A DNA stretch of 24,000 nt from Candidatus Desulfofervidaceae bacterium. Its GTDB lineage: Bacteria > Desulfobacterota > Desulfofervidia > Desulfofervidales > Desulfofervidaceae. The notes under the pieces are model-generated. The model searched no databases, was not told the DNA's origin, and saw only the letters and a list, made by a program, of their open reading frames with translations. Location of the stretch: positions 38,659 through 62,658 of the forward strand of contig JALWFG010000019.1 in the NCBI GenBank assembly GCA_027038965.1, given 5' to 3'. This document shows, piece by piece, positions 4,485-24,000 of the stretch. A program made the translations under genes and the position numbers. The number at the start of each line of letters is the position of its first letter. Position 1 is the first letter of the stretch.

Positions 4485-5317
4485 GCCCACTCTCCTTCGG
4501 TAAGGCACTTCCGAGGAGGACGGTCTAAGACTGAAGAAATCTTTTCTATTTCACCTGTAAGAATACCTGAGAGGATGAGGGTTTTGTTAGCGATTTGAGT
4601 AAGGGCGTTTAGCAAGGGTAAGATAATTTTAGTTTCCAAGTTGGCTACTACCCAGTCATATTGCCCTACTTCTGGATTAACTGTGTCTTGAACAAATCGG
4701 AGGTGAGAGACCTTATTTAAGGCCGCATTTTTGGAAGCCGCTTCAATGGCCAAGGGATCGGTATCAAGGGCAGTAATATGCCTAATACCCAATTTGGCCG
4801 CATAAATAGCCAAAATGCCTGTTCCTGTACCGACATCGAGCATGCTTTGAGGTGTCTCTAAAGGATAAAGTGCTTCCATGGATTTAAGACAAAGCCTGGT
4901 GGTTTCATGAGTGCCTGTGCCAAAGGCCATGGCAGGCTCTATAAAAAGGGCAATTTCGCCTTTTTGAGGACTATATTTCTCCCAGGCTGGAAGAACAATC
5001 AACCTTTTTGATATCCGCTGAGGACGAAAATACTGACGCCAGTTTTCCTGCCAGTTTTCTTCGTAAAATTCCTCCCAGTCACATTTTATTTGGGCGTCAG
5101 GGAATAGACTTAAAAGCAATTCTACTTGGACCTCCAGGGAAGCCCTTTCTTTTTCCCAGAGATGGGCCGGATGATAACTAAAGAAGGAGACCTCGTTACC
5201 TTCTTCTTTGACTTCAATGCCCCGCCTGGTTACCTTGTTAATGATTTCCATTACTAAAGGGGCAATCTCTGCGCTTGTTTTCCATTTGCCTCGATACCAT
5301 TTCCTCTTTTCTGTCAT
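4469..5317 (-). CDS. prmA: Ribosomal protein L11 methyltransferase PrmA
   Basis: 282 aa with FIEPAMAFGTGTHETTRLCL and the SAM-binding LDVGTGTGILAIYAAKLG motif, both characteristic of PrmA. Confidence 0.93.
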   Translation of the reverse strand: MTEKRKWYRGKWKTSAEIAPLVMEIINKVTRRGIEVKEEGNEVSFFSYHPAHLWEKERASLEVQVELLLSLFPDAQIKCDWEEFYEENWQENWRQYFRPQRISKRLIVLPAWEKYSPQKGEIALFIEPAMAFGTGTHETTRLCLKSMEALYPLETPQSMLDVGTGTGILAIYAAKLGIRHITALDTDPLAIEAASKNAALNKVSHLRFVQDTVNPEVGQYDWVVANLETKIILPLLNALTQIANKTLILSGILTGEIEKISSVLDRPPRKCLTEGEWACLII

Positions 5318-5423
5318 GATGTTAAATGGTAAGGGAAATACAAAAATGGGTCAAGGGATAAGGCTATTACAAACAGCATTTTGACAAAATGATTTAGAAT
5401 TGGCAAAAAGGGAGGGAGGTTTT

Positions 5424-6077
5424 ATGAAAGAATTGAATGCCCGAAAGTGGAAGAGGCTCTTTGAAATAGCTCAGGAATATTATCAAGAAAATGGACTTTC
5501 CCATCGTTGGGATCACGTGATAAGGGTGGAAAGATTGGCTGAAAGGATTGCCCTTGAAGAAGGGGCAAATCTTGAGGTAGTAAAGGTGGCGGCCCTTTTA
5601 CACGATATTGGGAGGAAAAAGGAGACCGAAACCAAAGGGAAGGTCTGTCATGCCGAATATGGGGCAAAACTGGCAGAAAGGATTCTTAAAAAGGAAGGCT
5701 TTTCTGAAGAATTCGCAAGCCGCGTCATTAAGGCCATAAAGAGACATCGTTTCCGAGGCAAGACTCCTCCTGAAACCCTAGAAGAAAAGGTGGTTTTTGA
5801 TGCCGATAAGATTGATAGCCTTGGAGCAGTAGGTATTGCAAGGGCATTTTTATTTGCAGGAGAAATAGGAGCAAGGCTTCACAACTCAGAAGTTCTCCTT
5901 GAAGAAACCAAGCCATATACAATAGAAGATACGGCTTGGAGGGAGTATAAACTAAAACTCTCTAAAATAAAGGATCGCCTTCTTACCAGAACAGGTAAAA
6001 AAATAGCAAAAAAACGCACGAAGTTTATGCAAAGGTTTTTTGAAGAACTAAATGCCGAGGTAGAGGGTATAAGATAA
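5424..6077 (+). CDS. HD-domain metal-dependent phosphohydrolase (YedJ-like architecture)
   Basis: H...HVIRV, ALLHDIGR and VFDADKIDSLGAVGIARAF motifs of the HD superfamily. Start placed at ATG 5424, preceded by AGGGAGGGAGG. The track's TTG at 5400 is probably an over-extension. Confidence 0.85.
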   Translation: MKELNARKWKRLFEIAQEYYQENGLSHRWDHVIRVERLAERIALEEGANLEVVKVAALLHDIGRKKETETKGKVCHAEYGAKLAERILKKEGFSEEFASRVIKAIKRHRFRGKTPPETLEEKVVFDADKIDSLGAVGIARAFLFAGEIGARLHNSEVLLEETKPYTIEDTAWREYKLKLSKIKDRLLTRTGKKIAKKRTKFMQRFFEELNAEVEGIR

Positions 6078-6168
6078 AAAAATGGGTTGCCCACTAGTCA
6101 CTCATTTAACCATTGACACAGGTCTTTGACTCTGATAAGCAAAATTAAATAAATTGAAGGCAGTATAT

Positions 6169-9100: not shown

Positions 9101-9681
9101 ATCGCCTCATCTTTAACCGTTTTATGGCCTCACAGATGAGGGAAGCCCAAGTGAAGGTGACAGAAATAAGAATGCGTTTCCCTGATTTATCTGGAACGTT
9201 CTTAAGTGAACACACCTGGCAAATTTACTCCGAAATTATAAAGCCTGGCTTTGATTTGGTTACTCCTCTTAAAGTAATTCCCCTGACTACTCCCCTTAAA
9301 ATTGAAAAAAGGGAACTTAAGTTTGTTCCCCAAACTCCACCCTTTACTGAAGGTAGTTTGATAGAGGAGATGAAGAAAAAGGGCCTGGGCCGTCCTTCCA
9401 CTTACGCCAAGATTGTTTCGGTGCTTTTAGAAAGACGTTATCTTATTTCCCGAAAGGAGTTTCTTTTCCCCACTCGTTTGGGAAGAGATGTTTTTAATTT
9501 TTTGGAGGCTAACTACCATGAGTATATTGATGAAGAATTTACCCGATTGCTTGAACAAAAGATGGATGCTGTAGAAAAGGGACAGGAGGATTATCAGGTG
9601 ATGCTTCATAGCATCTTCAAATGGGTGATAGAAGGAGACACACTTAACAAAGACGCTATGAGAAAGGTGTTGAATGTATAG
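6169..9681 (+). CDS. rgy: Reverse gyrase (SF2 helicase-like domain fused to type IA topoisomerase)
   Basis: N-terminal zinc finger CPNCG...CSHC; helicase motifs APTGVGKTT, VDDID, SSAT and QASGRASR. Then Toprim VESPTKAKTI, inserted zinc finger CGHCG...CPWC, DPDTEGEKI, and catalytic-Tyr motif ITYHRTDS. Start uncertain between TTG 6154, ATG 6169 (GAAGG 8 nt upstream) and ATG 6181. Confidence 0.97.
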   Translation: MYSPMAYFSELCPNCGSRISDVRLFKGLPCSHCLEETQTGSVCEVLKASGKMQGMATFCQLQEETKKFEHFFKRNLGFGPWSLQLSWFKRAFLKKSFAIVAPTGVGKTTFGMLYAAYIQAPSYIILPTKMLVEQVCEKLSKMVPCKEIVAYLGKKGQKELIQSAGYRILITTVNFFYRNAEILPKNFFKFVFVDDIDAILKSSRRVELLFQLLGFDEANIASASKIRLSQEELKRIKAIREKMDVVLVVSSATVQPKPRRMLLFERLLGFEISRTQIKLRNIVDALEEVKDEKEALKKAVAFIKEWGGGTFVFVSSERGKEGVEKVVSFLNKCKIRAISYENFKGKNKEAFRQGKIQAVVGIGTAYNSLARGIDLPEAVRYIVFIDVPKMVFPASVGLNPRRLFGILLALKDLLPVDKNSLYLSYLKKYLGLSEAQLARVMERYPKTRERLQEIADFLDGLLKDKSFRKRIEGSDTVGFQQKNGRWFIVVADVNGYLQASGRASRLFAGGLSKGLVVTFYWDKKALNSLLKRLKNSAPLGGEIKFWPLKEVNLKGLFEEIDKDREKIKSLITAVGSKQTFSQPKDLFTPTLVIVESPTKAKTIAGLFGKPAKRKIGNLTVYEVNLENRLLCITASLGHVCDLITNEGYFGIIEEDGRFLPIYAPIKRCGHCGVQTADALCPWCHNPPSQTKKEVILGLRQMAIEVDEIFIGTDPDTEGEKIGWDLFLLLRCFNHHISRIEFHEVTRQGLLRAIKRPREFSLPLVKAQILRRVADRWVGFVLSRQLWEAFGKNTLSAGRVQTPVLGWVIKREQDRRQKKAVITFLLNEHPLSFEELDLNKARKIFAGLDNAQIEIVSWCQKDISPSPPYDTSSILIDSSHILHLSAQNTMQILQELFEKGLITYHRTDSTHVSEFGQSIALEYITQKFGRDFWAKRSWGKAGTHECIRPTRPLDDEELRFLVATGEIYLNQPKQAIRLYRLIFNRFMASQMREAQVKVTEIRMRFPDLSGTFLSEHTWQIYSEIIKPGFDLVTPLKVIPLTTPLKIEKRELKFVPQTPPFTEGSLIEEMKKKGLGRPSTYAKIVSVLLERRYLISRKEFLFPTRLGRDVFNFLEANYHEYIDEEFTRLLEQKMDAVEKGQEDYQVMLHSIFKWVIEGDTLNKDAMRKVLNV

Positions 9682-11453: not shown

Positions 11454-12896
11454 ATGGGCTTAGAAATAGAACCGCTGGATAAATATAAATGGCGTATTCC
11501 CAAACAAGGGGATATGCGGACCGATGGAATTATTTATATTACAGCAGAGATGCTTGAGCTTATCAAACACGATGAAAGCATCAGGCAAGTGGCCAATGTG
11601 GCTTGTCTGCCAGGCATTGTTGGACCTTCAATGGCTATGCCTGATATCCATGCCGGCTACGGATTTCCGATTGGGGGTGTGGCCGCCTTTGATTTGGAAA
11701 GGGGAGTTATAAGCCCTGGAGGAGTGGGGTATGATATCAATTGTGGGGTACGCCTATTGCGCTCCAATTTAGAAAAGGAGGAAGTTCTACCCCTTATTGA
11801 AGATTTAGTAGATACCCTATTTGTGAATATTCCTACCGGAGTAGGTTCTTCTCGCAAGGACTTTAGGTTAAAGCAAACCGAATTAAAAAAGGTCTTGAAA
11901 AATGGTGCAAAATGGGCTGTCAGTAAAGGTTTTGGAAGTCAGAGAGACTTGGAACATATTGAGGCTGGAGGGTGCCTACCCCAAGCTGATCCCCAATTGG
12001 TTTCTAAAAAGGCCTACGAAAGGGGTAAAAGCCAGCTTGGTACCCTAGGTTCAGGCAATCATTTTGTAGAAGTGGGTTATGTAGATGAAATTTACCACGA
12101 AGAAATTGCACAAAAGATAGGACTTTTTAAAAACCAAGTGACAGTCATTGTCCATACAGGTTCTAGAGGATTGGGTCATCAGGTTTGCGATGACTATATT
12201 AAGGTGATGCTTAAGGCATCTGCTAAATATGGTATTAAGCTTCCAGATAGACAACTTTGCTGCGCTCCAATAAAATCCCCTGAAGGACAGGAGTACCTGG
12301 CGGCTATGGCCTGTGCTGCCAACTTTGCCTTTGCCAATCGGCAGATGATTACCCATTGGATAAGGGAAACCTTTGAGGGATTATTCAAAAAATCTTATGA
12401 AGAACTAGGACTCGATCTCATTTACGATGTTTGTCATAACATTGCTAAGATAGAAAGGCATGTTTACCAGGGGCAATCAGTTACCCTTTGTGTGCATCGC
12501 AAGGGTGCTACTAGGGCATTTGCTCCAGGACATCCTGAGGTTCCATTGGCCTATAGAGAAATAGGACAACCAGTCTTAATACCTGGAGATATGGGTAGGT
12601 ATTCCTATGTCCTGGTAGGGACTCAAAAGGCCATGGAGGAAACTTTTGGCAGTACTTGCCATGGAGCAGGCCGGGTAATGAGCCGCCATCAAGCCATTAA
12701 AATGGCTAAAGGGCAGAATATTGCCGCCCAAATGAAGGGGAAGGGGATATATGTAAGGAGTGCCGGGAGGAGAACCCTAATAGAGGAAATCTCTGAGGCC
12801 TATAAGGATGTGAGTGATGTAGTTGAGGTAGTGCATGGAGCAGGCCTTGCCAAAAAGGTAGCCAGACTAAAACCTTTGGGGGTGATTAAGGGATAG
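11454..12896 (+). CDS. rtcB: RNA 3'-phosphate/2',3'-cyclic phosphate ligase RtcB
   Basis: 480 aa with [28 protein letters not shown] and the C-terminal CHGAGR motif that holds the nucleophilic His. Classic RtcB. Confidence 0.97.
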
Positions 12897-12898
12897 AA

Positions 12899-14428
12899 AT
12901 GTTAGCCTCAATTTTGAGCAGTGCGGTTTGGGGGATAGAGGCCTATCCAGTAGAAGTAGAGGTGGACATTCAGCAGGGATTGCCTGCTTGGACCATAGTA
13001 GGACTGCCTGATCCCGTCGTAAAAGAAAGCAAAGAGCGAATAAGGTCAGCTATCAAAAATTGTAGTTACAAATTCCCTTCAGAGCGCATTACCATTAATT
13101 TGGCTCCAGCCTCACGAAAGAAAGAGGGCTCAGCCTTTGACTTGCCTATTGCTATTGGGCTTTTGGTAGCCAATGGTCATATTAAAGGCAGTCATATAAA
13201 CAAGTATCTCTTTTTAGGGGAACTATCCCTGGATGGGAGTGTGAAGCGGGTAAGAGGTGTTCTCCCCATAGCCCTTTTAGCAAAAGAATTGGATGTAAAG
13301 GGAATAATCATTCCCATTGAAAATGTTGCCGAAGCGGCCATTGTGCCTGCAATAGAAGTGATTGGAGCAAGACATCTTACTGAGGTGGTTGAGTTTTTGA
13401 ACGGATTAAAAGACTTACCCAAGATAAGCCTTGAGCCGAAAGAGGTTTTTAATAGCTCAGAGGTAGATGATGTTGATTTCCAAGAAATAAAGGGTCAAAC
13501 TCATGCCAAAAGGGCACTTGAAATTGCTGCGGCTGGCGGCCATAATGTCCTTATGGTAGGTCCTCCAGGAACTGGGAAAACCATGCTGGCGAGGCGGCTC
13601 CCCACCATTCTTCCACCGCTTAGCTTTGAGGAGGCCCTTGAAACCACCCGCATTTATAGTGTCGCGGGGCTTTTGCCTCCAGGGCATTCCTTAATTGCTA
13701 GAAGACCATTTCGAGCGCCGCATCATACCATCTCTGACGCGGGGCTTATTGGAGGAGGCCAGATTCCCAGGCCTGGAGAGGTTACCCTGGCCCATAATGG
13801 GGTTCTCTTTCTTGATGAGCTTCCTGAGTTTAAACGCCATGTTTTGGAGGTCTTAAGGCAACCGCTTGAAGACGGCGAAGTAACCATTTCTAGAGCAGGG
13901 GCCAGCATGACCTATCCGGCAAGATTCCTCTTAGTAGCTGCGATGAATCCCTGTCCATGTGGCTATTTAGGAGATTCAAGACATCAATGCACTTGTTCCT
14001 ATGCTCAAATTAGGCGTTATAGGGCAAAGATATCAGGTCCTCTTTTGGACAGAATTGATTTGCATATTGAGGTTCCGTCTGTAGATTGTAAAGAATTAAA
14101 GCAGATTCCAGAGGGAGAGACGTCTGCTGAAATCAGGAAAAGGGTAATAGCGGCCCGAAATATACAACTAAGACGTTTTCATAATCTTGGCATTTACTGT
14201 AATGCCCAAATGGGAGTCAAGATGATTGATGAATTTTGCCAGCTAGATCAAGAGGGGCAAAGATTGTTAGACACAGCTATGGAGAGATTGGGACTAAGTG
14301 CCCGGGCTTATATGCGTATTTTGAAAATTGCAAGGACTATTGCTGACTTAGAAGGGGAAAAGAAGATTTTGCCCCAGCATATTGCCGAAGCCATTCAGTA
14401 TAGGTCTTTGGATAGAGAAATCAGCTAA
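12899..14428 (+). CDS. yifB: YifB/ComM-family Mg-chelatase-like AAA+ ATPase
   Basis: 509 aa. N-terminal Lon-protease-like ChlI domain, Walker [11 protein letters not shown], Walker [11 protein letters not shown], Cys cluster CPCGY...C.C, and the C-terminal Mg_chelatase_C-like region [18 protein letters not shown]. The start lies 2 nt after the rtcB stop. Confidence 0.93.
14360..14428 (+). repeat. Left copy of 69-nt imperfect direct repeat (functional 3' end of yifB: last 22 codons + stop)
   Basis: Aligns without gaps to 21531-21599 with 60/69 identities. Encodes [22 protein letters not shown]. Confidence 0.9.
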
Positions 14429-14530
14429 AGCGCGTGGGGACGAGACATATTTTAAACCGGATAGGTTTTCATGTTGTCTCGCAAGGCCGATTAGGGGGGA
14501 GGTTTTCCCTGCCCCCTTTGGCCTTTGGTC

Positions 14531-15061
14531 TTAACCTAGGATGGCCTTCTGAAACTCCTCAAAACCTATCCTGTCAATAAATCTTCCCAATCGTTCTCCC
14601 TTTTTGGCGTTTTTTTCATAGAAGTTGATGATCTTATCAGCCAGTTGCAGGGCCTCTTCAGAGGAAACATTGTCGGTAAGCTTGCGGGCCAGCATAGGAC
14701 GGGCACCGCCACAGCCACCTACTAGCACAGTCCACCCCTTGGGCTTGCCCACAAAGCCCAAGTCTTTGATGCAGGTCTCCGCACACTGGTTGATACAACC
14801 CGAAACCCCGATCTTGAACTTGGTAGGGAGGGCATAACCGTGGTAGCGTTTATCCAGCTCAGCTCCCAGGGCCAGGGAATCCTGCTGCCCCAGGCGGCAA
14901 AAGGTGGTGCCGGGACAGACCCTGATGCTGCGGATACAGCCCCCCACCGCCGCCCCAGGGTTAACTCCAAGTTCTTCCCAAACCTTATCAATGTCCTCTT
15001 CTTTTAGCCCCACCAGGGCGATGCGGTCGGCACTGGGAAAAAGCTTGGTAGAGACAGGCAA
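14531..15061 (-). pseudogene. 5'-truncated nitrite/sulfite reductase-like (siroheme/4Fe-4S domain) gene remnant
   Basis: Carries the C-x5-C (CIRSIRVCPGTTFC) and C-x3-C (SGCINQCAETC) cluster-ligand motifs and the C-terminal ERLGRFIDRIGFEEF tail. No ATG is present, only a TTG. An in-frame stop lies 3 codons upstream (15071-15073). Most of the N-terminal ferredoxin-like half-domain seems to be missing. Confidence 0.6.
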
Positions 15062-15065
15062 GAAT

Positions 15066-15122
15066 GAGGGCTAAAGGCTGAGGCAAGAGCAAAGGCAAAG
15101 GGCTAAAAGGCTAAAGGAAAGA
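15066..15122. repeat. Purine-rich low-complexity tract with degenerate GGC(T/A)AA(A)GG units
   Basis: GGCTAAAGG at 15069-15077 and 15109-15117, GGCTAAAAGG at 15101-15110, with GGCAAGAG/GGCAAAGG in between. It sits exactly at the truncation point of the reductase remnant. Confidence 0.6.
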
Positions 15123-15177
15123 CTTTGCGTCATTTGCTTTTTTTACAGGCCAGGTGTTTGTATGGGCCCTTAACCTC

Positions 15178-18100
15178 TTAAGCAGACCTTCTGTTTCTAA
15201 AGCGACGCGCCAGGGTCAGGAGCTTATCTAGCAGGGCATAGAAGAGGGGCACGTAGACCAGGGTGAGGATGGTGCCCACGAGGAGGCCACTGATGGCCAC
15301 TACCGCCAGCGGGGAGAGCCTTTCCAGGCCGATGGCCCACTCGGCGGCGATGGGGATCATCCCGGTAATGGTGGAAAGGGCGGTCATGAGGATGGGGCGG
15401 GTTCGGGCCCGGATGGCCCCTTCGATGGCGGTATAGAGGTCAGCCCCGCTTTTCCTGGCCCGCTCGATGAAGTCCAAGAGCAGGATGGAGTTGTTTACCA
15501 CCACGCCTGAAAGGAGGATCATGCCCATGGAGGCCGGCATACAGAAATGTCGCCCCACCAGGAGGAGCCCCCAGATGGCCCCGATGAGCGCCAGCGGTAT
15601 GGCCACCATGATGGTCAACGGGTGCCTGAAGGAGTGAAAGGTGGGCACCAGGGAAAAATAGAGCAGGATCAGGGAGAGGATCAGGGCCTTCTTTAACCGG
15701 CCAAAGGATTCCTTCATGGGCTTGATTTCACCCTCCTGGGAGAGGCGAAACCCCGCGGGGACAGGGAGGCCTTTGAGCGCCCTTTCTACCCCGGCCTGGA
15801 GGTGGCTTATGGCGGTCTTGCGGCGGTAACCCAGGACGTCGATTACCGGGGAGAGGTTTTCCCGGACGATGATCCCACGCACGAAGGTCGCCTGCACCTG
15901 GGCCAGTTCCCTCAAAGGCACCGGCCCCTCGCGGGTGGGGACAAAGGTGTCCAGGAGGTCCGAAAGCGAAGACCGTTCTCTCTCGGGAAAGCGCAGGAGA
16001 ATACGGTAGGGTCGTTCTTCTGGGACGCGCCAGAGCGAGGCCTTGGCCCCGGCAAAGGCGGCGGAGAGCTCCTTGGCCAGGGCCTGAGGGGAGAGGCCGT
16101 AGCGGGCGAGTTTTTCAAGCTTAGGCCTGATCCAGTATTCCTGGCGGTCAAAGTCCCAGGTGTGAGAGAGGCTTACCAGCCCTCGCACGCGGTGGAGCCT
16201 GCTTTCGACTTCTAGGGCCAGCTTGTGGAGGAGATAGGGATCTCGCCCGGAGATCATCACGTCTATCGGGGCGGCGATGGAGGAGAGCGGGGTGGCACCA
16301 AACTCGAAGACATGCAGGCTCTTTAGCCCCGGAATTTTCAGAAAGTCGCGATAGAGCCGGTCTTCTATAGTCCAAATGGATTCTTTGCGATGGAAGCGAT
16401 CCACGAAATGCGCCGTGATGACCCCCTGCCGCGGGGTGCGATCCGCCCCGAAACTGATGACCCCGGGCTCAGAGCCCATGACGGTGGCCATGCGGATGAA
16501 GCCAGGTGTTTTTTTGATGCGGTCTTCCATCTCCCGAATGATCCCCTCGGCTTCTTCGATGGGGGTATTCGGGGCAACTTCAAAAGAGACTTTGATAATC
16601 CCGGTATCCATAGGGGGCATGAGGTCCCGGCCCACGAGCGGCATGATCTTCTTGGCACTGAACCCTAGAAGGGCGATGGCTGGCAGGATGAGGAGCAGTT
16701 TGTAGCGCATACCAAAACGAAACAGGGCCAGATAGAAGCTCCGCAGCCTTTCAAGAAAGGCCTCGCTTACGCGGGAAAGGACTTTTTCTAGCCGGGAGCT
16801 CTCGCCGCGGTGCAGCACGTACGGGGCTAGCAAGGGAATAATGGTCACCGAGACCACATAGGAGGCGGAAAGGGCCATGGTGAGCACCACCGCCAGCTCG
16901 CGCAGGATCTTTTCCACGTAGCCACCCACGAACATGATGGGGATGAGGACCAGAATAGTGGTGAAGGTGCCGGAGAAATCGGTGAGCATGATCTCTTTGG
17001 TGCCGGAGATGGCGGCTTCCTTGGGGGAGAGCCCCTTTTCCCGGAGGTGTCTTTCAATGTTTTCCGCCACTACGATGGAGTCGTCTACCAAGAGCCCTAC
17101 CGCCAGGATGACCGCCGTCATGGTGACGATGTTGAGCTCCATCCCGAAGAGCTTCATGAGAAAGAAGGTCAGGAAGTAGGTCACCGGGATGGAGACGGCG
17201 GCCAGAAGCGTGGCCCTTACCCGGGCCATGAGGAGGAAGATCACCGCCACGGTGAGGATGATGGCGTCCCGCAGGGCCCCGATGAGGTTGGAGACTGAGG
17301 TGCGAATGATATTTTCCTGGGTATCGGCGATGGAAAAACGCAGCCGGGGGTATTGTGGAGCCAAGCGTTTGAGGGCCTCTCTGGCGGCCTTGATGGTGGC
17401 CATCACGTTTCCGTTCTCTGGCCGGAGGATATTGATGGCAATGGCTGGGGCGCCGTTACCGTGAAAGAGACTCGCGCGGTCGGCGTGGGTCACGTGGATC
17501 TTGGCGATATCCCGCAGGTGTATGGCCTCGCCGTGGTGGGGAATGGTGAGCGTGGCCAATCTTTCGGGCTCGCGCACCTCTCCGGCTAGCTTGATGAAGA
17601 TCTCCTTGCGATTGGTGCGGATCACCCCGGAGGGGAGATTGGCGTTTTCGGCATAGAGGGCGGCTGAGACGTCTGCCAGGCTTAGGCCGTAGCGGGCAAG
17701 CGCCTCCCGGTCCACCTCTATCAGAACCTCGGGCTCGTAACCGCCGAAGACTTCCACGTCACCGATCTCGGGGACGTTTAGCAGCGCGGGCTTGATATAC
17801 TCCTTGGTAAGCCGTCTGACCTCGGAGAGACTGAGATTCGAACCTTCCTTAGGCCTTACGGCCACGGTCATCACCGGGGTGGTGGCGTCACTCACCTTGA
17901 AGATCCGGGGCGGCAGGAGCCCCGGGGGGAGGTCACTCAAGATGCGGTCAAGGGCGGCGGAGACGTCTACCTGGGCGGCGGAAAGGCCCTTTTCGTAGTC
18001 GAATTCTACCGAGACCACGGCCACCCCGTCCCGGGAGACCGAGCGCACCTTGCGCACCAAAGAAAGCGTGGCAAGCTCTTTCTCTACCGGGATGGCCACT

Positions 18101-18285
18101 TGTCTCTCCAGATCCTCTGCCGAGGCCCCAGGAAGCTGAAGGACCACCACCACCCGGGGATAATTGGCGTCGGGGAAGAGATTGAGGGGCAACTCCCGGA
18201 AGCTTTTGATCCCGAGTACTACCCCGAGGAAGAGGAGGGCCAGGATGAGATGGGGATATTTGAGGTAACGTTCTACCAGGTTCAT
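15178..18285 (-). CDS. RND efflux transporter permease subunit (AcrB/HAE1-like)
   Basis: 1035 aa with 12-TM RND topology. The TM4 motif LAVGLLVDDSIVVAENIERH is AcrB-like. There are large periplasmic loops after TM1 and TM7. Confidence 0.95.
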   Translation of the reverse strand: MNLVERYLKYPHLILALLFLGVVLGIKSFRELPLNLFPDANYPRVVVVLQLPGASAEDLERQVAIPVEKELATLSLVRKVRSVSRDGVAVVSVEFDYEKGLSAAQVDVSAALDRILSDLPPGLLPPRIFKVSDATTPVMTVAVRPKEGSNLSLSEVRRLTKEYIKPALLNVPEIGDVEVFGGYEPEVLIEVDREALARYGLSLADVSAALYAENANLPSGVIRTNRKEIFIKLAGEVREPERLATLTIPHHGEAIHLRDIAKIHVTHADRASLFHGNGAPAIAINILRPENGNVMATIKAAREALKRLAPQYPRLRFSIADTQENIIRTSVSNLIGALRDAIILTVAVIFLLMARVRATLLAAVSIPVTYFLTFFLMKLFGMELNIVTMTAVILAVGLLVDDSIVVAENIERHLREKGLSPKEAAISGTKEIMLTDFSGTFTTILVLIPIMFVGGYVEKILRELAVVLTMALSASYVVSVTIIPLLAPYVLHRGESSRLEKVLSRVSEAFLERLRSFYLALFRFGMRYKLLLILPAIALLGFSAKKIMPLVGRDLMPPMDTGIIKVSFEVAPNTPIEEAEGIIREMEDRIKKTPGFIRMATVMGSEPGVISFGADRTPRQGVITAHFVDRFHRKESIWTIEDRLYRDFLKIPGLKSLHVFEFGATPLSSIAAPIDVMISGRDPYLLHKLALEVESRLHRVRGLVSLSHTWDFDRQEYWIRPKLEKLARYGLSPQALAKELSAAFAGAKASLWRVPEERPYRILLRFPERERSSLSDLLDTFVPTREGPVPLRELAQVQATFVRGIIVRENLSPVIDVLGYRRKTAISHLQAGVERALKGLPVPAGFRLSQEGEIKPMKESFGRLKKALILSLILLYFSLVPTFHSFRHPLTIMVAIPLALIGAIWGLLLVGRHFCMPASMGMILLSGVVVNNSILLLDFIERARKSGADLYTAIEGAIRARTRPILMTALSTITGMIPIAAEWAIGLERLSPLAVVAISGLLVGTILTLVYVPLFYALLDKLLTLARRFRNRRSA

Positions 18286-19376
18286 GAGCCCCTCGTGATC
18301 ACCCTCTGTCCGGGATGAAGCCTTAAGAGGAGCCCTGGATCGCCCACGACCACGGGCTCGCCGGGCACGAGTTTGCCCTTAAGCACGACCTGGTCGGCAC
18401 TCTGTCCCAGCACCTCCACCGGCACCAACACCAGCCGCTCCTCCCGCACCACATAGACGGCAGGATTTTTTCCCGGTACCAGGGCCTTGAGGGGCAGAAC
18501 GAAGCCCTCGGGTTCTTTGAAGACGAGATCGACCCCCACCGAGGCCCCGGAGGGGAGGCCAAAGGGGCGCTCTTTGAGACGAATCTCGGCGGTGGCCAGG
18601 GCCTCCTCCCCCACCGCCGGATGCACCCGAAACACCCTGGCCGCCTGCCGCCTTTTCCCCAAGGTGAGGTAGGCCTTGGTGCCCCGGGCCAGGAGGCCGG
18701 CCTTTTCCTGGGGAATCTTTACCAACACGCGGTAGCCGGCCTGCGGGTCTTCAAGCTCAAGGATAGGGGTCCCGGGGGTGGCCAAGTCACCAGGGTCTTT
18801 GAAGCGTTTGGTCACCACCCCGGAGAAAGGGGCGGTGATCCGGGCGTAAGTGAGATCGGCCTTCACCGCGGCCATTTCCTGGCGGAGCTGTACCACCCGG
18901 GCCTTGGCCAGCTCAAAGGCGCTTTTTGAGAGATCGAAGGCCTCCTGGGAGATGGCCTCGTGGGCCAAGAGCTTTTGATTGCGCCGCAAGATCGCCTCCC
19001 GGGTGAGAAGGTCGCTTTGGGCGGCGTTGAGTTCGGCCTTGAGGGTGGCCAGGCGCGTAAGCAAGCCCTTGGCCTCGATCTCGACCAGGAGTTCTCCCTT
19101 TTTGACCGGGTCGCCTTCGTACTTGGTGACTTTTAAAAGGTAGCCGGTGAGCTTGGTGGAGAGGCTTGCGGATCTAAGGGGTCTGATGGTCCCTAAGTAA
19201 TGTTCTCTGATCTCGAGCCGTCCTTTCTTGACCAAGGCGGTTTTCACGGGGAGGGGGACCTTTGGTGGTGGCGGGGTCTTTTCTAGGGCGGCCTTTTTCA
19301 TCTTTACCAGACGTGCTGCCCCGGCCACGAGGGCCAATATCACCAGAATGGTAAGCAAGAGCTGGGATTTTTTCAT
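18282..19376 (-). CDS. RND efflux periplasmic adaptor (membrane fusion protein, HlyD family)
   Basis: 364 aa with an N-terminal membrane anchor, lipoyl-like GDPVKKGELLVEIE, a coiled-coil hairpin and a beta-barrel C-terminus. The stop overlaps the RND start (ATGA). Confidence 0.9.
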   Translation of the reverse strand: MKKSQLLLTILVILALVAGAARLVKMKKAALEKTPPPPKVPLPVKTALVKKGRLEIREHYLGTIRPLRSASLSTKLTGYLLKVTKYEGDPVKKGELLVEIEAKGLLTRLATLKAELNAAQSDLLTREAILRRNQKLLAHEAISQEAFDLSKSAFELAKARVVQLRQEMAAVKADLTYARITAPFSGVVTKRFKDPGDLATPGTPILELEDPQAGYRVLVKIPQEKAGLLARGTKAYLTLGKRRQAARVFRVHPAVGEEALATAEIRLKERPFGLPSGASVGVDLVFKEPEGFVLPLKALVPGKNPAVYVVREERLVLVPVEVLGQSADQVVLKGKLVPGEPVVVGDPGLLLRLHPGQRVITRGS

Positions 19377-20683
19377 GGGAGGTACTCCTTACTCATCTGG
19401 CCGGTGGCGAGTTCGAAGGCCACCCGGGCGGTTTTCAGGTTGTAGTAAGCCTTTACCAGGGCGGTCTTGGCCCGGAGCCAGGCTTCCTGGGCGGAGAGGA
19501 GGTCTGTCACCGCGCCGGCGCCGGTCTGGTAGCGCACCCTCTCCCGTTCGAAGACTTCCCGGGCATAGGCCTCGGTGGCCTGGTATTTTTCTAGCTGGGC
19601 CCGGGCGGTCTGGATTTGAGTGAGGGCCGTAAGGATCTCTTCCCGGGCCTTGAGGCGCACCGCTTTCAGGTGTTCCTCGGCGGCCAGGACCTGGGCCTGG
19701 TTTTCTCGAAGCCGGTTTCTTTTGCCGCCGGAATCAAAGAGATTGAGCTCGAACCTAAGGCCCGCGGTCCAGACCTCTTCGTCGTGGTGGAGGCCGGCCC
19801 CGGCCCGTCGCCCGTAGGAGGAAAAGAGGGCGACCGTGGGCCAGTAGGCCCGTTTGGCACGCTCCAAGGAGGCCTCGGCCTGTTTGACCCGAAGGGCCGC
19901 GGCCTTTACGTCCGGACGGGCGGCAAGGTAAGTCTCCCCCTCCTCCTCGGCGGGGAGGTCCGATGGGGCCGCTTGGAGGTCCCCGGTAACCTCAAAATCC
20001 GGCCGTTCTTCACCCATGAGGAGGGCGAGGAGGTGTTTGGCCAGCCGAAGATTTTCCTTGGTGGCAAGCAGGGCGGCCTCTTCTTCGCGTAGGGCCCGTT
20101 CAAAATAGAGGAGATCGAGTTTGGCGATCTTCCCCAGACGATATTTGAAGGCGGCCTCTTGGTGCTGTCTCTTAAGGAGAGAGAGCTGTTCTTCTTGGGC
20201 CTGGGCCAGTGTTTTGAGATAGAGAATCTGGTAATAGACCTGTTTCACGTTGGCGATGAGGTCTTCGGTAGACTGGTGGAGGAGACTTTTTTGGACTAGG
20301 GTCTCAAGTTCTTTGATCTTTACTTCCCGGGCTACCCGGCCGCCTTCGTAAAGGGGTAGCGAGAGCTCTACCTCCCAAAAATAGATGTCCCGGCTGAAGG
20401 CCGGGAACTGTCCCCAGCCCTTGATGGGAAGCACCGCCACCGGGTCACTGTGGCGTTCGGCCTGGGCTACGAGATCGGCCCGAAGCCAGCGGTTGGCCGC
20501 GGTGGCTTTCCTGGCGTAGGAGGCCGCCTTTATCTCTTCTTGGCGAGAACGAAGCTCCGGGTGGGTGGAGAGGGCCTTCTTGATGGCGGTGTCCAGGGTG
20601 AGGGTCTTGGCCCCGGTCTTTGCCGGGAAGAGGAGGGCGCAAAGCAAAAGGCCTAGGACAAGGGGCTTGAGGCTACTTCTCAT
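19373..20683 (-). CDS. TolC-family outer-membrane efflux factor
   Basis: 436 aa with signal peptide MRSSLKPLVLGLLLCALLFPAKTGA. Two tandem helical/beta OEP-type repeats have an Ala/Leu/Glu/Arg-rich heptad character. The stop overlaps the MFP start. Confidence 0.88.
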   Translation of the reverse strand: MRSSLKPLVLGLLLCALLFPAKTGAKTLTLDTAIKKALSTHPELRSRQEEIKAASYARKATAANRWLRADLVAQAERHSDPVAVLPIKGWGQFPAFSRDIYFWEVELSLPLYEGGRVAREVKIKELETLVQKSLLHQSTEDLIANVKQVYYQILYLKTLAQAQEEQLSLLKRQHQEAAFKYRLGKIAKLDLLYFERALREEEAALLATKENLRLAKHLLALLMGEERPDFEVTGDLQAAPSDLPAEEEGETYLAARPDVKAAALRVKQAEASLERAKRAYWPTVALFSSYGRRAGAGLHHDEEVWTAGLRFELNLFDSGGKRNRLRENQAQVLAAEEHLKAVRLKAREEILTALTQIQTARAQLEKYQATEAYAREVFERERVRYQTGAGAVTDLLSAQEAWLRAKTALVKAYYNLKTARVAFELATGQMSKEYLP

Positions 20684-21344
20684 GCAGGCCCTCCAAACCC
20701 TTTAGTGCAAAGACAACGATGTATTCCACGAGGACCCTTTTGAAGGTTTCGTCGTAGTCACGGCCGGTCAAGACGCTCACCTTGGGACGGGCAAAGTTGA
20801 AATAGAGGATCTGGGCCAGGAGGCTAAGCACCGCAAGAAGCAGGGCCTCTTCGGAAAGCTTGGGAAAATGGTCCCTTAAGGCTTCCATTACTTCAGATAC
20901 CAGGGGCCTTACGGCCTCTTCGGAAATCACCGCAAAGGCCTTGGTGGGCTCGGTAATCTCACGGGCCAGCAATCGGTAGTGAATAACCCGTTCCTTATCG
21001 TTCATGGGGCCACAGAGCACGGCCTCAGCAAGCGCCCTGATGATGGCTTCGGCTGAGGGCGGGGCCTCTTTATTAAGGCGGGCTCGAAAGTCTTTCCGTA
21101 TGCGCCGGGCCCGTTCGAGAAAACACTCCCGAAAGACCGCAAAGTAAAGGTTCTCCTTGGAACCAAAGTGGTAGTTCACCGCCGAGAGATGTACCTTGGC
21201 GCGGGAGGTGATCTCTCGCACAGTCACCCCATGAAATCCCTTTTCGGCAAAGAGCTCTTCCGCTGCAACAAGGACCTTTTGGCGAGTATCTCGGTCTTTC
21301 TTTGGTCTAGGAGTTGCTAACATACGAACATTTATATCAAACAT
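20673..21344 (-). CDS. TetR/AcrR-family transcriptional regulator, first gene of the efflux operon
   Basis: N-terminal HTH TRQKVLVAAEELFAEKGFHGVTVREITSRAKVHLSAVNYHFGSKENLY. The stop overlaps the OMF start by 11 nt. The start may instead be the second ATG at 21323. Confidence 0.9.
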   Translation of the reverse strand: MFDINVRMLATPRPKKDRDTRQKVLVAAEELFAEKGFHGVTVREITSRAKVHLSAVNYHFGSKENLYFAVFRECFLERARRIRKDFRARLNKEAPPSAEAIIRALAEAVLCGPMNDKERVIHYRLLAREITEPTKAFAVISEEAVRPLVSEVMEALRDHFPKLSEEALLLAVLSLLAQILYFNFARPKVSVLTGRDYDETFKRVLVEYIVVFALKGLEGLHEK

Positions 21345-21530
21345 TCATTCGAAAAGCAAGGGGGAATTTTTAGGAAGCGGGAATCTTGGGCGTTTGGCAG
21401 TTAGCAAAAATTTTATAAATTGGTAGTCCCTACTGCTTCCCAAAAAGCAAATACCATTACCATTAAAGGGCTGCAGGACACTTTTCTGCCCCTTCTAAAT
21501 CGGCGATTGGGCGGGTATTTTAAAATACAA

Positions 21531-21599
21531 AAGAAAATTTTGCTCCAGCATATTGCCGAAATCATTCAATATAGGTCTTTGGATAAAGAAATGGTCTAA
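21531..21599 (+). repeat. Right copy of 69-nt direct repeat: orphan relic of a yifB 3' end (22 codons + stop, frame intact)
   Basis: 60/69 identical to 14360-14428. Translates in the same frame to KKILLQHIAEIIQYRSLDKEMV*. There is no upstream coding continuation. Lies 53 nt upstream of tRNA-Phe. Confidence 0.9.
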
Positions 21600-21615
21600 A
21601 AATATTTTAGACATC

Positions 21616-21642
21616 TTGACAGACAGAATTATTTTTTATACC
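21616..21642 (+). promoter_or_regulatory. Possible tRNA-Phe promoter
   Basis: Consensus -35 TTGACA at 21616-21621. The best -10-like hexamer is TATACC (21637-21642), at a short 15-nt spacing. It would start transcription a few nt before the tRNA 5' end. Confidence 0.3.
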
Positions 21643-21652
21643 TTAAGGAGCA

Positions 21653-21728
<76 letters not shown>

Positions 21729-21746
21729 GCAAAAGCAAGTAATTAA

Positions 21747-21782
21747 GGCCAGTTAGGCCAAGCTCCTAACTGGCCTTTTTGT
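21747..21782 (+). terminator. Rho-independent terminator after tRNA-Phe
   Basis: Perfect 11-bp stem GGCCAGTTAGG (21747-21757) / CCTAACTGGCC (21765-21775) with a 7-nt loop, followed by TTTTTGTTT. Confidence 0.8.
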
Positions 21783-21825
21783 TTGTAAAAAGGCAGGGGT
21801 AAACATGGGGTAAAGATAGACCCTG

Positions 21826-22359
21826 CTAAAAGTTTTTGAAACCATCCCATTTGTCCCATTTTTCTGGCGCCCATGCTACGGGCTTCTTGGACCCCGGGGG
21901 AAAATATCGGCCTTCTCTAAGGCAATATTGCAAGACTTCACACCAGTTGAAAAATGTTTCGTATTTTCTCTTGTTCCCAAGCTTCTGGAGCTCCGTTCTG
22001 ATTTTAAGCGGTATTTTAGGAAGAAGACCCGCTAGCTCTCTGCTGGTAATTGTGGGAAAATCTGAAGAAATGTCTTTTGCGTCCGCCTGTTTTAAAACAT
22101 ACAACCTTCGGCCAAGAAGGAGGTAATGAAAAGGAATAATCCTATTTTGAATAGATGAGAGCGAAAAGCCAGTTTCTTTTGCAGCAGTTTCGGGCAAAAC
22201 AAGGACCGTGCTGTTTTTCCGATTCCACCACTTGGCAACTGGATCATTAGTGTAGCTAAGCTGATCCAGAACAACAGGAAACGGAAAAAAATACAAATAT
22301 AGAATTTTGCCAAAAGGCGAAAGGGCGTAAATTGGTCCCGTCTTTTTTATACTGGACAA
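21826..22359 (-). CDS. Hypothetical protein; apparently the C-terminal ~2/3 of a gene split by a frameshift (see 22256-22582)
   Basis: 177-aa ORF that begins only at a TTG with no RBS. Its first residues (SSIKKTGPIYALSPFGK) read like the wing of the winged-helix domain encoded by the upstream overlapping ORF. No family recognised. Confidence 0.6.
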   Translation of the reverse strand: MSSIKKTGPIYALSPFGKILYLYFFPFPVVLDQLSYTNDPVAKWWNRKNSTVLVLPETAAKETGFSLSSIQNRIIPFHYLLLGRRLYVLKQADAKDISSDFPTITSRELAGLLPKIPLKIRTELQKLGNKRKYETFFNWCEVLQYCLREGRYFPPGSKKPVAWAPEKWDKWDGFKNF

Positions 22360-22582
22360 CTACAGCCTGCTTTTTCTCAAGGCTTTGGAGGGACCTCTTA
22401 CACGCTTTCCCAATAGCTACCTGGATGGAGCTGAGGGAGAGGGCCCCGTGCCAGAGTAGATGTAGAATTTCCTTTTCTAGGGCGTGAATCTGGACTTGTT
22501 TTTTCTTTTTTCTGCCCTTTTCCACGCTTATCTTTTTTCTCCTTTTTAATTTTTTGTCAATAGTTTTGTTGTTTTTTATCAA
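22256..22582 (-). CDS. Winged-helix DNA-binding N-terminal fragment of the same split gene
   Basis: A Lys/Arg-rich N-terminus is followed by ALEKEILHLLWHGALSLSSIQVAIGKACKRSLQSLEKKQAVVVQY, which is wHTH-like. The frame decays into SVSCCSGSA after the A6 run. The start is TTG 22582, or GTG 22525 with AAGGAG 13 nt upstream. Confidence 0.45.
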   Translation of the reverse strand: MIKNNKTIDKKLKRRKKISVEKGRKKKKQVQIHALEKEILHLLWHGALSLSSIQVAIGKACKRSLQSLEKKQAVVVQYKKDGTNLRPFAFWQNSIFVFFSVSCCSGSA

Positions 22583-22610
22583 TAGGTTTTAACAGTTAAA
22601 TCAATAGGTT
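22557..22610. repeat. Three iteron-like direct repeats TCAATAG(G)TT at an exact 22-bp period
   Basis: TCAATAGTTTT at 22557, TCAATAGGTTTT at 22579 and TCAATAGGTT at 22601. The second and third copies share the 11-mer ATCAATAGGTT. They lie at the 5' end/upstream of the wHTH gene, next to an AT/homopolymer-rich spacer (22611-22766). Confidence 0.6.
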
Positions 22611-22766
22611 AAGACAAAATAAAGCATTTCTTTTGATTTTTACGAGAGAAAACAAAAACAGTTTTTTTACTTCGCTTTAACCTCTTTTACTCTCTTTTTT
22701 TGTTTTTTGTCGGAGAAAAAAAGACACTAATTTTTGGTAGGAGAGAAAAAAAAGAGGTAAGCGAAA

Positions 22767-23414
22767 ATGCAAAAGAGAAGAAAGGAAAAAGAGAGAAAAG
22801 AGAATCTGCTGCTCTTCTGGCAGGTTCAAGAACAAGTTCAGAATTTTTTTGAAAACAAGGGTATTTACGCAACAGAGACGATCACAGCATATGTGACAAT
22901 ATGTGTTGCCGTTCAGGCCATCAACCACAAGTGGAAACAAGTCTACGACTGGAAAATTGCCGAGGCCCTGGCTCAACTCTACCGTCACGAACCAATCGAA
23001 AGGCCCCGAATGCAAGGAAAATCGGCCATTCTTCGCTTTCTGGCAACCTGGGACGCGTGGACCTTGGAGAAGCACCCCACTGTCCACTTTTCAACCCTAG
23101 AGAGAACAGACGGCAGCCTGCTGGCTGAGGAGTTTTTGATCCCGACCGACGAACCGGCCCCGGAATCGGAACCAACAGAGAAAATCAAAGCAGAAATTGA
23201 GCAATTTTTTGGCGGGATTTGGGCCTATGCCGAAGCGGCCCTTGAAGAAAACCTGCGGAGAAATCAGCGAAAAAAGGAAAGGGAACGGCTAAAACAGCAG
23301 CAGCTTTTTGCCATATCTTCTGAGCCCAAACCCAGGGAAAAGAAAAGAAAAAAGCACCCCCGGCGCAGGCGCCGGCCGTTTAGGCCCGGGCCAGGGCCGG
23401 CGGCACCGGCTTAG
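22767..23414 (+). CDS. Hypothetical protein with basic N-terminus and extremely basic, Pro/Gly-rich C-terminal tail
   Basis: 215-aa ORF with AGAGGT 9 nt upstream of the ATG. Divergent from the wHTH gene. No family recognised. The tail is KKRKKHPRRRRRPFRPGPGPAAPA. Confidence 0.6.
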   Translation: MQKRRKEKERKENLLLFWQVQEQVQNFFENKGIYATETITAYVTICVAVQAINHKWKQVYDWKIAEALAQLYRHEPIERPRMQGKSAILRFLATWDAWTLEKHPTVHFSTLERTDGSLLAEEFLIPTDEPAPESEPTEKIKAEIEQFFGGIWAYAEAALEENLRRNQRKKERERLKQQQLFAISSEPKPREKKRKKHPRRRRRPFRPGPGPAAPA

Positions 23415-23562
23415 GCCGGCCGGGATTGCACTTTTGCACTTTATTGATAGGGAGGTGATGAGGGATGTAGCAAGGGCAAGGCAGTAAAAAGGAGGGAAAG
23501 CCAGAGGCGGAGGAGGAGGAAAAGAAGGAAAAAACAAAAAAACAAAACAAGGAGGTAAAACG

Positions 23563-24000
23563 ATGATTGACCTTGAAACCTACGGTTACGAGGTGGAGTT
23601 TGCCGCAAAGAACGGCGACGAACTCAAAAAAATCGGGCTCCATCCTTTTTTTACGATCCTCCCTCCCTCTCATGTAGTTCGAGATGGTTGGTTGTGCGCT
23701 TACAAAAATCACAGAGATGAAAAAAAGAAAGTCGACATAATCGAGATAGAAAAAATTTGTCCGATGTTCTGGATTTCAGCCGTGGCGAACCCCGTAGAAG
23801 GGGATGAAGGCGGCGTGATGATCCTTAAGCGAGCAGATGGAGCCGCAAAAGTCTTTTCTTACCGCGACATTTCCGACCCCCGGAAAGCGGGCTGCATCTT
23901 AGCCGACTTTCTGGAGGTGCCTTTTACTACCGATACTAGAAAAACAGTATTGCTGTATTTGCGGAGTTTTTTCCTAAAAAACCTAAGAAATATCCGCAGC
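23563..24000 (+). CDS. Hypothetical protein, N-terminal 146 codons (runs off window); possibly the N-terminal region of a DUF927-type primase/helicase replication protein
   Basis: My own translation: MIDLETYGYEVEFAAKNGDELKKIGLHPFF...ICPMFWISAVANPVEGDEGGVMILKRADGAAKVFSYRDISDPRKAGCILADFLEVPFTTDTRKTVLLYLRSF. It is open to the window end, and AAGGAGGT lies 7 nt upstream. This ORF is not in the supplied track because it has no stop. The functional guess rests on remembered family pattern only. Confidence 0.7.
   Translation, partial: MIDLETYGYEVEFAAKNGDELKKIGLHPFFTILPPSHVVRDGWLCAYKNHRDEKKKVDIIEIEKICPMFWISAVANPVEGDEGGVMILKRADGAAKVFSYRDISDPRKAGCILADFLEVPFTTDTRKTVLLYLRSFFLKNLRNIRS

Follow-up and report, generated by a model that had tools for sequence, protein, structure and literature searches.

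How can a block of foreign DNA settle directly behind a housekeeping gene, repeat the end of this gene at its own far border and leave the gene intact? The question is raised by a stretch of 24,000 nt from Candidatus Desulfofervidaceae bacterium (contig JALWFG010000019.1), which is called the window here and to which all coordinates refer; loci fetched for comparison are numbered Lnnn and proteins Pnnnn. In this window an intact gene of the yifB/comM family is separated from the gene of tRNA-Phe by a GC-rich island of 7.1 kb with an efflux operon, and the last codons of yifB occur a second time just in front of the tRNA. We regard it as very probable that the island is a foreign insertion and that yifB was originally followed by tRNA-Phe. 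That it arrived by integration of a circular intermediate, in an old and by now fixed event that preserved yifB, is the account which we prefer with some reserve.

The duplicated yifB end and the empty site

The bounds of the repeat were taken from a MAFFT alignment together with a repeat finder (family D1). Its two copies, A at 14358-14429 and B at 21529-21600, are 72 nt long, in direct orientation and 88% identical without any gap; no other direct repeat in the window is as long or as good (the runner-up has 38 nt at 71%). They cover the final 23 codons of yifB plus the stop, with frame and stop kept in both. An earlier note on this DNA, made from the letters alone, had given 60 of 69 identities with frame and stop preserved, which the alignment reproduces. 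It had also named a widespread dispersed repeat as one finding that would speak against its reading, and no such family was encountered: the repeat core occurs at only two sites in the DNA of this species and at none of the 175 other loci (179 loci in total). Behind the stop the likeness may continue, as ATATTTTAAAC (14447-14457) on the A side matches ATATTTTAGAC (21602-21612) on the B side, with a GC-rich insert of 17 nt intervening on the former. By our own estimate such a match has a chance probability of about 0.01, and the duplicated unit possibly extends past the stop, to about 86 nt. The insert (14430-14446) reads GCGCGTGGGGACGAGAC and is absent both on the orphan side and in the relative described next; its CGAGAC can pair with GTCTCG in a scrap of ftsZ located 29 nt downstream.

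The predicted empty site is found in the nearest other lineage (P0002, with a yifB product of 81% identity; L085-L088), where the pair rtcB-yifB is followed by tRNA-Phe after 57 nt. This tRNA-Phe is identical to that of the window at 76 of 76 positions and its terminator hairpin is conserved, while the spacer motif reads TTGACA...TATAAT in the relative versus TTGACA...TATACC in the window. Copy B is in frame, ends at the stop and sits exactly where the relative has the end of yifB, and this empty site therefore identifies copy B as the native yifB end. Two suggestions of the earlier note are thereby borne out, namely the original order of yifB directly before tRNA-Phe and the view of the orphan copy as the displaced native end, which adjoins the promoter-like motif, the tRNA and the terminator conserved in the relative. 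The tRNA itself was placed correctly at 53 nt past the orphan; it is the single tRNA-Phe(GAA) of the window (21653-21728, ARAGORN and Rfam), and the Rfam scan detected only this tRNA and no other RNA family.

The gene yifB is full-length with a C-terminus that equals the family consensus, and the rtcB-yifB pair is kept in all relatives examined; in more distant ones fmt/def or secA lies downstream of yifB. With 81% amino acid identity the empty-site relative is a different species. No empty site was found within the same species, and since the 90% cluster of this yifB contains no variant without the island, the island appears to be fixed. The gene and an identical left junction are present in contigs from four samples (three besides this one). 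A scan of a genome collection with yifB returned, among the matches listed, only relatives of 60% and was of no use for the empty-site search.

To decide which copy had changed, the nine mismatches between A and B were polarised with five orthologs as outgroups. The base of copy A is found in 5/5 outgroups at four positions and in the majority at three more, so that copy B is derived at seven of the nine mismatches, two are ambiguous and copy A is derived at none. Six of the changes in B are GC-to-AT transitions. At the protein level five residues (P, A, R, I and S) of the conserved tail ILPQH-AEAIQYR-LDREIS are altered in B, among them A in AEAIQYR and R in LDR, both invariant in all 16 homologs read, and copy A shows the family consensus at all five non-synonymous differences; only two differences are synonymous. 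The copies share 62 of 71 nt with each other, either of them shares 47-57 of 71 with the orthologs, and A shares 53 of 71 with the relative of 81% amino acid identity. Copy B can thus be considered a decaying orphan that has apparently drifted by about 10%, mostly through GC-to-AT transitions. Once this decay is corrected for, A and B would have been about 96-100% identical at birth. Copy A is host-type, because the outgroups place the changes in B and because no ortholog comes as near to A as B does. The asymmetry pointed out earlier, with G/C in copy A and A/T in copy B at six mismatches, is real; its source is the decay of the orphan and not a donor signature. As a general lesson, such asymmetry between repeat copies can be the decay of an orphan, and outgroups decide.

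Composition, genes and origin of the island

The DNA between the copies differs clearly from its surroundings, as had been supposed from its letters, and G+C content, G+C at third codon positions (GC3) and tetranucleotide usage all show a step. In windows of 500 nt the G+C content is 0.39-0.48 outside (one window at 0.52) versus 0.54-0.66 within 14.5-21.0 kb, the host having about 42%. GC3 amounts to 0.36-0.44 in eleven host genes and 0.61-0.77 in five island genes, and in tetranucleotide usage the distance from the host reference rises from 0.021-0.032 outside the island to 0.049-0.063 within it. The features of the locus are as follows.

12899-14428, plus strand: intact yifB/comM-family AAA+ ATPase, 509 aa (TIGR00368, 680 bits, positions 2-499 of 499)
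14358-14429, plus strand: repeat copy A (attL-like), last 23 codons and stop of yifB; its first 8 nt, AAAAGAAG, are the junction core
14430-14457, plus strand: 17-nt GC-rich insert (14430-14446), then ATATTTTAAAC (14447-14457) resembling the native spacer ATATTTTAGAC
14465-14521, plus strand: ftsZ' scrap (...LSRKAD-stop, ends 14494), then a G/C-rich hairpin; left end of the foreign DNA
14531-15061, minus strand: truncated gene of a small nitrite/sulfite-reductase-domain protein, 176 aa (PF01077)
15062-15177, no strand: linker with GGCTAAAGG-type short repeats, without match in the fetched loci
15178-18285, minus strand: RND efflux permease, 1035 aa (PF00873, E=1e-200, positions 11-1020 of 1021)
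18282-19376, minus strand: periplasmic adaptor (MFP), 364 aa (TIGR01730, 161 bits)
19373-20683, minus strand: outer-membrane factor (OMF/TolC family), 436 aa (PF02321, two domains)
20673-21372, minus strand: TetR-family regulator (to 21344) and conserved upstream operator/promoter region (PF00440, CecR_C)
21373-21480, no strand: AT-rich filler of 108 nt, right end of the island, without match in the fetched loci
21481-21528, minus strand: inverted 48-nt yifB scrap from a different lineage, equivalent to about yifB nt 1418-1467
21529-21612, plus strand: repeat copy B (attR-like), the orphaned native yifB 3' end to 21600, then native spacer
21616-21777, plus strand: native tRNA-Phe unit with a TTGACA...TATACC promoter-like motif, tRNA-Phe(GAA) at 21653-21728 and a terminator hairpin at 21745-21777

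All island genes (the truncated NIR_SIR gene, RND permease, MFP, OMF and TetR) lie on the minus strand. Profile searches detected no integrase or transposase among the island's open reading frames (ORFs), all of which were assigned to other families, and as only 102 + 116 + 184 = 402 nt are non-coding, there is no hidden recombinase gene in the island. The lack of such genes and the presence of a truncated gene, both noticed before, are confirmed.

The left part of the island corresponds to a small nir locus. The NIR_SIR gene encodes the C-terminal 176 aa of a protein of about 219 aa, about 45-50 N-terminal codons being missing, and its best full-length relatives have 88% and 85% identity (Thermodesulfatator atlanticus). 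It belongs to the small type of about 219 aa, and its assignment as nirB proper was rejected. At the nucleotide level 14522-15036 is 79% identical to L097 5979-6493. In L097 the small nir gene is flanked by the gene of an Rrf2 regulator and, on the other side, by a convergent ftsZ, and the window keeps this synteny in miniature, since 14474-14494, TTGTCTCGCAAGGCCGATTAG (...LSRKAD-stop), matches the end of ftsZ in L097 (...FLRRKAD-stop). A variant of the truncated protein with 99% identity exists (P0241), for which no genomic location was found. In the adjoining linker (15062-15125) GGCTAAAGG occurs twice and GGCTAAAAGG once, besides related GCAAAGG units, without a match elsewhere.

The larger part of the island is homologous to an operon in L093/L094 (window 15221-21360, 72-75% at the nucleotide and 83% at the protein level), the operator region of TetR included. 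There it resides in a core neighbourhood with mfd, surA and recO on one side and dnaE on the other. The closest homologs of the RND permease have 83-84% identity and lie in chromosomal contexts without nir or yifB; the protein from Thermosulfuriphilus has 70% and that from Thermosulfurimonas 63%. The genes for RND, MFP, OMF and TetR are complete, they overlap or abut and their order is conserved in L093; the island is predicted to supply a TetR-regulated tripartite RND efflux pump. As listed, the TetR reading frame starts 21 nt upstream of the start of its L093 homolog (21323-21344). The stretch upstream of the L093-type start overlaps a conserved operator-like sequence, TTTTCGAA.GA.TGTTTGATA..AATGTTCG, and the true start is therefore probably the second ATG.

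Since the nir'/ftsZ' piece and the operon piece sit in unlinked core neighbourhoods in L097 versus L093/L094, the insert reads as a mosaic in which at least two chromosomal pieces of Thermodesulfobacteria-like type, unlinked in origin, are combined with fillers. The filler segments 14429-14530, 15037-15177 and 21361-21480 have no match in any fetched locus. The protein comparisons, of the kind that the earlier note had recommended for finding the donor lineage, point to Thermodesulfobacteria-like organisms (pump 63-70% to named genera, nir' 85-88%).

An inverted scrap and the possible routes of integration

Between the filler and copy B lies a short inverted piece of yifB that does not stem from the host. 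It is 94% identical to the yifB of L089 (44 of 47 positions, score 72), followed by L092 (61) and L090 (55), and represents the best-scoring tile of the whole window (BLAST E=2e-8 against all fetched loci). Its score against the host yifB is 26, where 1000 shuffles gave a maximum of 28, and it differs from the host by about ten synonymous changes in 16 codons, compared with two between A and B. A copy of the host yifB was therefore rejected as its origin, and given the synonymous differences the scrap cannot have been copied from the host gene at the time of the duplication. Its inner end corresponds to host position 14364/5 and copy B starts at the equivalent of 14358, so that the two overlap by 7-8 nt. 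This overlap, AAAAGAAG (yifB nt about 1460-1467), lies inside the quasi-palindrome GGGGAAAAGAAGATTTTGCCCC, and the two junctions belong to different yifB alleles. The scrap suggests a fossil of an earlier junction between the TetR end of the island and a yifB of the L089 clade at the same site; in the L089/L092 clade this old junction would read ...TTAGAAGGGG(A/C)AGAAAA joined to TGTCCTGCAGCCCTTTAATGG. A short scrap of another lineage's target gene can in this manner record the previous host of an island.

For the locus as a whole the following course of events may be proposed. At the start rtcB-yifB, a spacer of about 55 nt and tRNA-Phe would have stood together, the empty-site form reading the yifB end, then ATATTTTAGACATCTTGACA and tRNA-Phe. 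Before it reached this host, the island DNA would have formed a junction at the same 7-8 nt, AAAAGAAG, with the yifB of a different lineage of Desulfofervidaceae-like kind. A circle that carried the host-type last ~70 nt of yifB, possibly with 14 nt of spacer, would then have integrated additively (Campbell-type) by one reciprocal crossover within the shared segment, adding the 7.1-kb Thermodesulfobacteria-like mosaic between yifB and tRNA-Phe; the circle junction would read ...GGGTATTTTAAAATAC joined to AAAAGAAGATTTTGCCCC.... The left product would be an intact yifB ending in copy A, the right product an untranslated orphan, copy B, before the tRNA-Phe promoter, and afterwards the orphan would drift while copy A is held by selection. 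The enzyme may have been a site-specific recombinase acting in trans or since lost, the island then being a relic like the cis-mobilizable elements (CIMEs), or RecA working on a near-identical segment of about 72-86 nt. The observed structure is that of an additive integration, as the earlier note had put it when it described a scar of a circular element. The ends of the insert are not terminal inverted repeats (score 11, P=0.69 versus shuffles), and a structured or hairpin-forming circle junction was tried and rejected (z=-0.9).

Similar arrangements occur elsewhere. In two of 80 unrelated yifB loci a low-GC cargo without recombinase is enclosed by an intact yifB on one side and an orphaned 3' fragment of the gene on the other: L010 (11543-13692) carries two proteins of unassigned type, and L043 (11537-13791) a metallophosphatase and a glycosyltransferase. 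No recombinase was found near either insert, and defence-system models gave no hit on their cargo. The differences between the copies are mostly synonymous in both. The L010 orphan comprises yifB nt 1150-1262 and 1474-1541; it represents at least 392 nt of the gene and has lost 211 nt by an internal deletion. Its '-69' edge is a deletion boundary, and the proposal of L010 as a parallel at the same coordinate was withdrawn. L031 was rejected as an insertion, being a tandem duplication (11498-14070) of a unit of about 1.26 kb, which has its start within the final 35 nt of yifB and carries a luciferase-like monooxygenase gene. It demonstrates that plain tandem duplication is another source of orphan yifB ends. 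Longer yifB homologs of 523-525 aa, examined as candidates for 3'-end replacement, have only N-terminal extensions.

Several points weigh against the integration of a circle as outlined. Neither the island nor the rest of the window encodes a recombinase, and none recurs next to yifB in 62 diverse loci. The orphans begin at yifB nt 1150 (L010), 1489 (L043) and 1460 (window), and nothing in this speaks for an attachment site conserved across phyla. The scheme also leaves the 17-nt insert behind the stop of copy A unexplained. No further copy of the island turned up in a different context (the closest pump has 84%, and the best match of a metagenome scan with TetR 46%), nor did one in an L089-type genome by the homolog and metagenome TetR searches, and the previous host is deduced from 48 nt alone. 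Moreover, the inverted scrap forces an extra step on every model, which may have been an integration in the wrong orientation with aberrant excision, an inversion, or a later gene conversion between A and B.

As to the agent, a tyrosine-type recombinase, provided in trans or lost since, may have joined an attP-like junction with the AAAAGAAG core in yifB and left a CIME-like relic; we hold this as a tentative possibility. The host repeat boundary and the inner end of the L089-type scrap are independent junctions in different yifB alleles, and they coincide to within 7-8 nt; we estimate that only about 1% of randomly chosen yifB fragments would have their end so close (8 nt or less) to this point. 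The overlap has the size of a recombinase crossover and its core lies in a quasi-palindrome; besides, CIMEs are defined by retained attL and attR sites without recombination genes (PMC5704250). However, no cognate integrase is present here or next to yifB elsewhere, the near-identity of about 70 nt at birth is not required by such an enzyme, the boundaries of orphans differ in other lineages, and the inverted scrap would need the wrong-orientation integration and aberrant excision just mentioned. If this reading is true, the recombinase has still to be found.

The same crossover could have been homologous. In this case RecA would have recombined the chromosome with a circle that carried a near-identical yifB 3' end of about 72-86 nt, and the coincidence of the scrap would go back to earlier rearrangements. 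A near-identity of 96-100% at birth and the absence of an encoded recombinase fit such an event, as does the variable length of the orphans, which is longer in L010 (at least 392 nt) and shorter in L043 as if the length of homology were arbitrary; the mostly synonymous differences between the copies in L010 and L043 likewise resemble two alleles that were once functional. A length of about 80 nt is, however, near the lower limit for RecA recombination. It is left unexplained why the scrap ends at the same 7-8 nt at which the host-type segment starts, and the circle must have carried a host-type segment beside an L089-type scrap. We regard this route as about equally tentative.

A rather unlikely alternative dispenses with the circle altogether. 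A linear fragment would have been inserted by illegitimate or replicative recombination at the fragile quasi-palindrome, with a target duplication of about 86 bp and a templated patchwork. Template-switch repair typically leaves inverted short segments at junctions and duplications flanking the inserts, and the island shows scraps of genes at several of its inner joints (ftsZ', nir', linker, filler and inverted scrap), duplicates that were essentially identical at birth and a junction within the quasi-palindrome. Against this, a reading of the sequence at the joints shows no evident microhomology, and the scrap is of L089 type and hence was not templated from the host gene. The mosaic could equally predate the arrival of the island, and the coincidence of the junction coordinates does not fit this route.

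Quite improbable, to our judgement, is a more general version in which the yifB 3' end at the AAAAGAAG quasi-palindrome of this clade serves as the attachment site of a hitherto unrecognised class of recombinase-less 'hitcher' islands that are moved in either orientation between related thermophiles by a helper or host recombinase. If true, the scrap would be the footprint of one hop and the orphans of L010 and L043 would be distant relatives of the same phenomenon.

The earlier note had assumed that copy A is donor-like, i.e. the higher-GC replacement end brought along from the source lineage of the island. The G/C versus A/T asymmetry at the six mismatches had led to this assumption, and elements such as e14 do bring a replacement end (PMC13626634). 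The outgroups contradict it, as they polarise the sites as changes in B, with seven of nine derived there and none in A, and B breaks invariant residues. In addition, A is nearer to B than to any ortholog, a Thermodesulfobacteria yifB end is expected to be far more divergent than 88% when the relative of 81% amino acid identity already shares only 53 of 71 nt, and ATATTTTAAAC behind the stop of A matches the host-specific spacer. We consider a donor-derived copy A very improbable. An artefact, either a chimera of metagenome assembly or a match from a dispersed repeat family, is a practically negligible explanation: the contig is metagenome-assembled and its right junction is known only here and in the ENA counterpart L081, but contigs from four samples show one and the same left junction, the repeat core is seen nowhere else in the 179 loci, and the orphan is in frame, stop-ended and located at the position of the yifB end of the empty-site relative.

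Past the native tRNA terminator begins a small replicon-like element of about 4.6 kb (window 21790-24000, continuing in L095 1-4700), which assembles as a separate contig of 4861 nt in two samples. It encodes a DUF927 primase/helicase of 657 aa (PHROG 8841 DNA primase/helicase, E=6e-46) and several ORFs without family, and it contains ten GGGATAACC/GGTTATCCC iteron-like repeats (L095 3930-4260). The ORF adjoining tRNA-Phe (21826-22530, minus strand; L095 108-863) matches no Pfam or PHROG family. It has 251 aa in L095, but both in the window and in L096 a 1-nt indel breaks it into a part of 177 aa and a piece upstream of it; its AlphaFold 2 (AF2) model was unusable (pLDDT 36). Within the element Pfam and PHROGs detected no integrase, and no att-like repeat, tRNA 3' repeat or circular overlap was found. 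The element is not integrated in tRNA-Phe, and the suggestion that it might have mobilised the island is unsupported, as it has neither a recognisable recombinase nor a tRNA 3' repeat. The empty-site relative has the gene of a DDE_Tnp_1 transposase at a distance of about 340 nt downstream from tRNA-Phe (L086 5125-5958). This insertion-sequence transposase at the equivalent place means that the region after tRNA-Phe is variable in that lineage too, and hence that both sides of tRNA-Phe are variable.

The host is a thermophilic relative of the Desulfofervidales / Ca. Desulfofervidaceae, as follows from its reverse gyrase gene (6154-9681; zf_Rg, DEAD, Toprim and Topoisom_bac in the annotation of L081) and the affinity of its yifB, the closest proteins having 81-76% and a 'Candidatus Desulfofervidaceae' protein 75% identity. 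For RtcB (11454-12896) the best NCBIfam model is 'intein-containing RtcB' with 764 bits, below the cut-off of 1150; as the model matched over the extein part only, RtcB is without intein here.

Comparison with known systems

The island shows several traits of elements that reside at the 3' ends of genes, namely direct repeats, a full-length target, foreign origin and an empty site; a cognate integrase next to the att site is absent. The closest structural likeness is the e14 prophage in icd of E. coli K-12, which leaves an intact gene and an orphan icdC (PMC13626634). In e14 (and phage 21) at icd, as in the island, the 3' end of a conserved gene is used, an alternative end lies at the left edge of the element and the displaced orphan at its far end. 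In contrast, e14 has its own integrase and SOS-induced excision, whereas the island encodes no recombinase. Furthermore, the replacement end of e14 bears substitutions brought by the element, while the copies flanking the island were near-identical at birth and their differences are orphan decay.

CIMEs keep attL and attR and lack the genes for integration and transfer (PMC5704250). Those of streptococci, e.g. at the 3' end of fda, share with the island the direct repeats of a target-gene 3' end and the absence of integration and transfer genes. They are decay products of identifiable integrative and conjugative elements (ICEs) or integrative mobilizable elements (IMEs) and coexist with cognate elements; in the case of the island no ICE or IME remnant and no cognate element was found. 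Moreover, its repeats have diverged to 88%, copy B having drifted at 9 of 69 nt.

The family of the target gene is known from other insertions. AbaR/Tn6019 elements are Tn7-like, with tni genes and a short target duplication. They resemble the island in using comM, a member of the yifB family, and in carrying resistance-type cargo (PMC6412058), but they are transposons that reside within comM and interrupt it, whereas yifB is intact here and the island has neither transposition genes nor inverted-repeat ends. The remark in the earlier note that the AbaR-type islands of Acinetobacter disrupt comM and that the gene is kept in the present case agrees with the full length of yifB. Serine-recombinase elements and pipolins are also integrated in yifB (PMC11551731). 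An example of such a target is provided by L182, where prophage tail genes and a large serine recombinase of 555 aa abut a yifB fragment (residues 381-506) followed by dprA (4173-7240); partial yifB occurs as well in the viral contigs L180, L181 and L183-L186. Prophages with large serine recombinases and pipolins differ from the island as they split the gene mid-way (residue ~381 in L182), leave no long duplicated segment and have their recombinase gene at the junction; in the island neither a Resolvase nor a Recombinase domain was detected.

SGI1- and MGI-type islands occupy the 3' ends of trmE, yicC or guaA, and some are helper-dependent (PMC8409611). Like the island, they preserve the housekeeping gene whose 3' end they use and are flanked by short direct repeats, and they differ by their own integrase and mobilisation functions and by much shorter repeats. 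In SGI1 the repeats have 18 bp. The island is also not of the tRNA-integrated type, as it lies 124 nt upstream of the tRNA, of which only one exists and no partial copy.

Taken together, the locus exemplifies gene flow across phyla among uncultured hydrothermal thermophiles, the donors being Thermodesulfobacteria-like and the recipient Desulfofervidales-like, by which an intact regulated efflux pump has become fixed at a housekeeping locus without damage to yifB. The known insertions into yifB, by transposons and by serine-recombinase elements, both disrupt the gene. Its 3' end, used in a gene-preserving mode, thus adds to the documented uses of yifB/comM as an insertion target.

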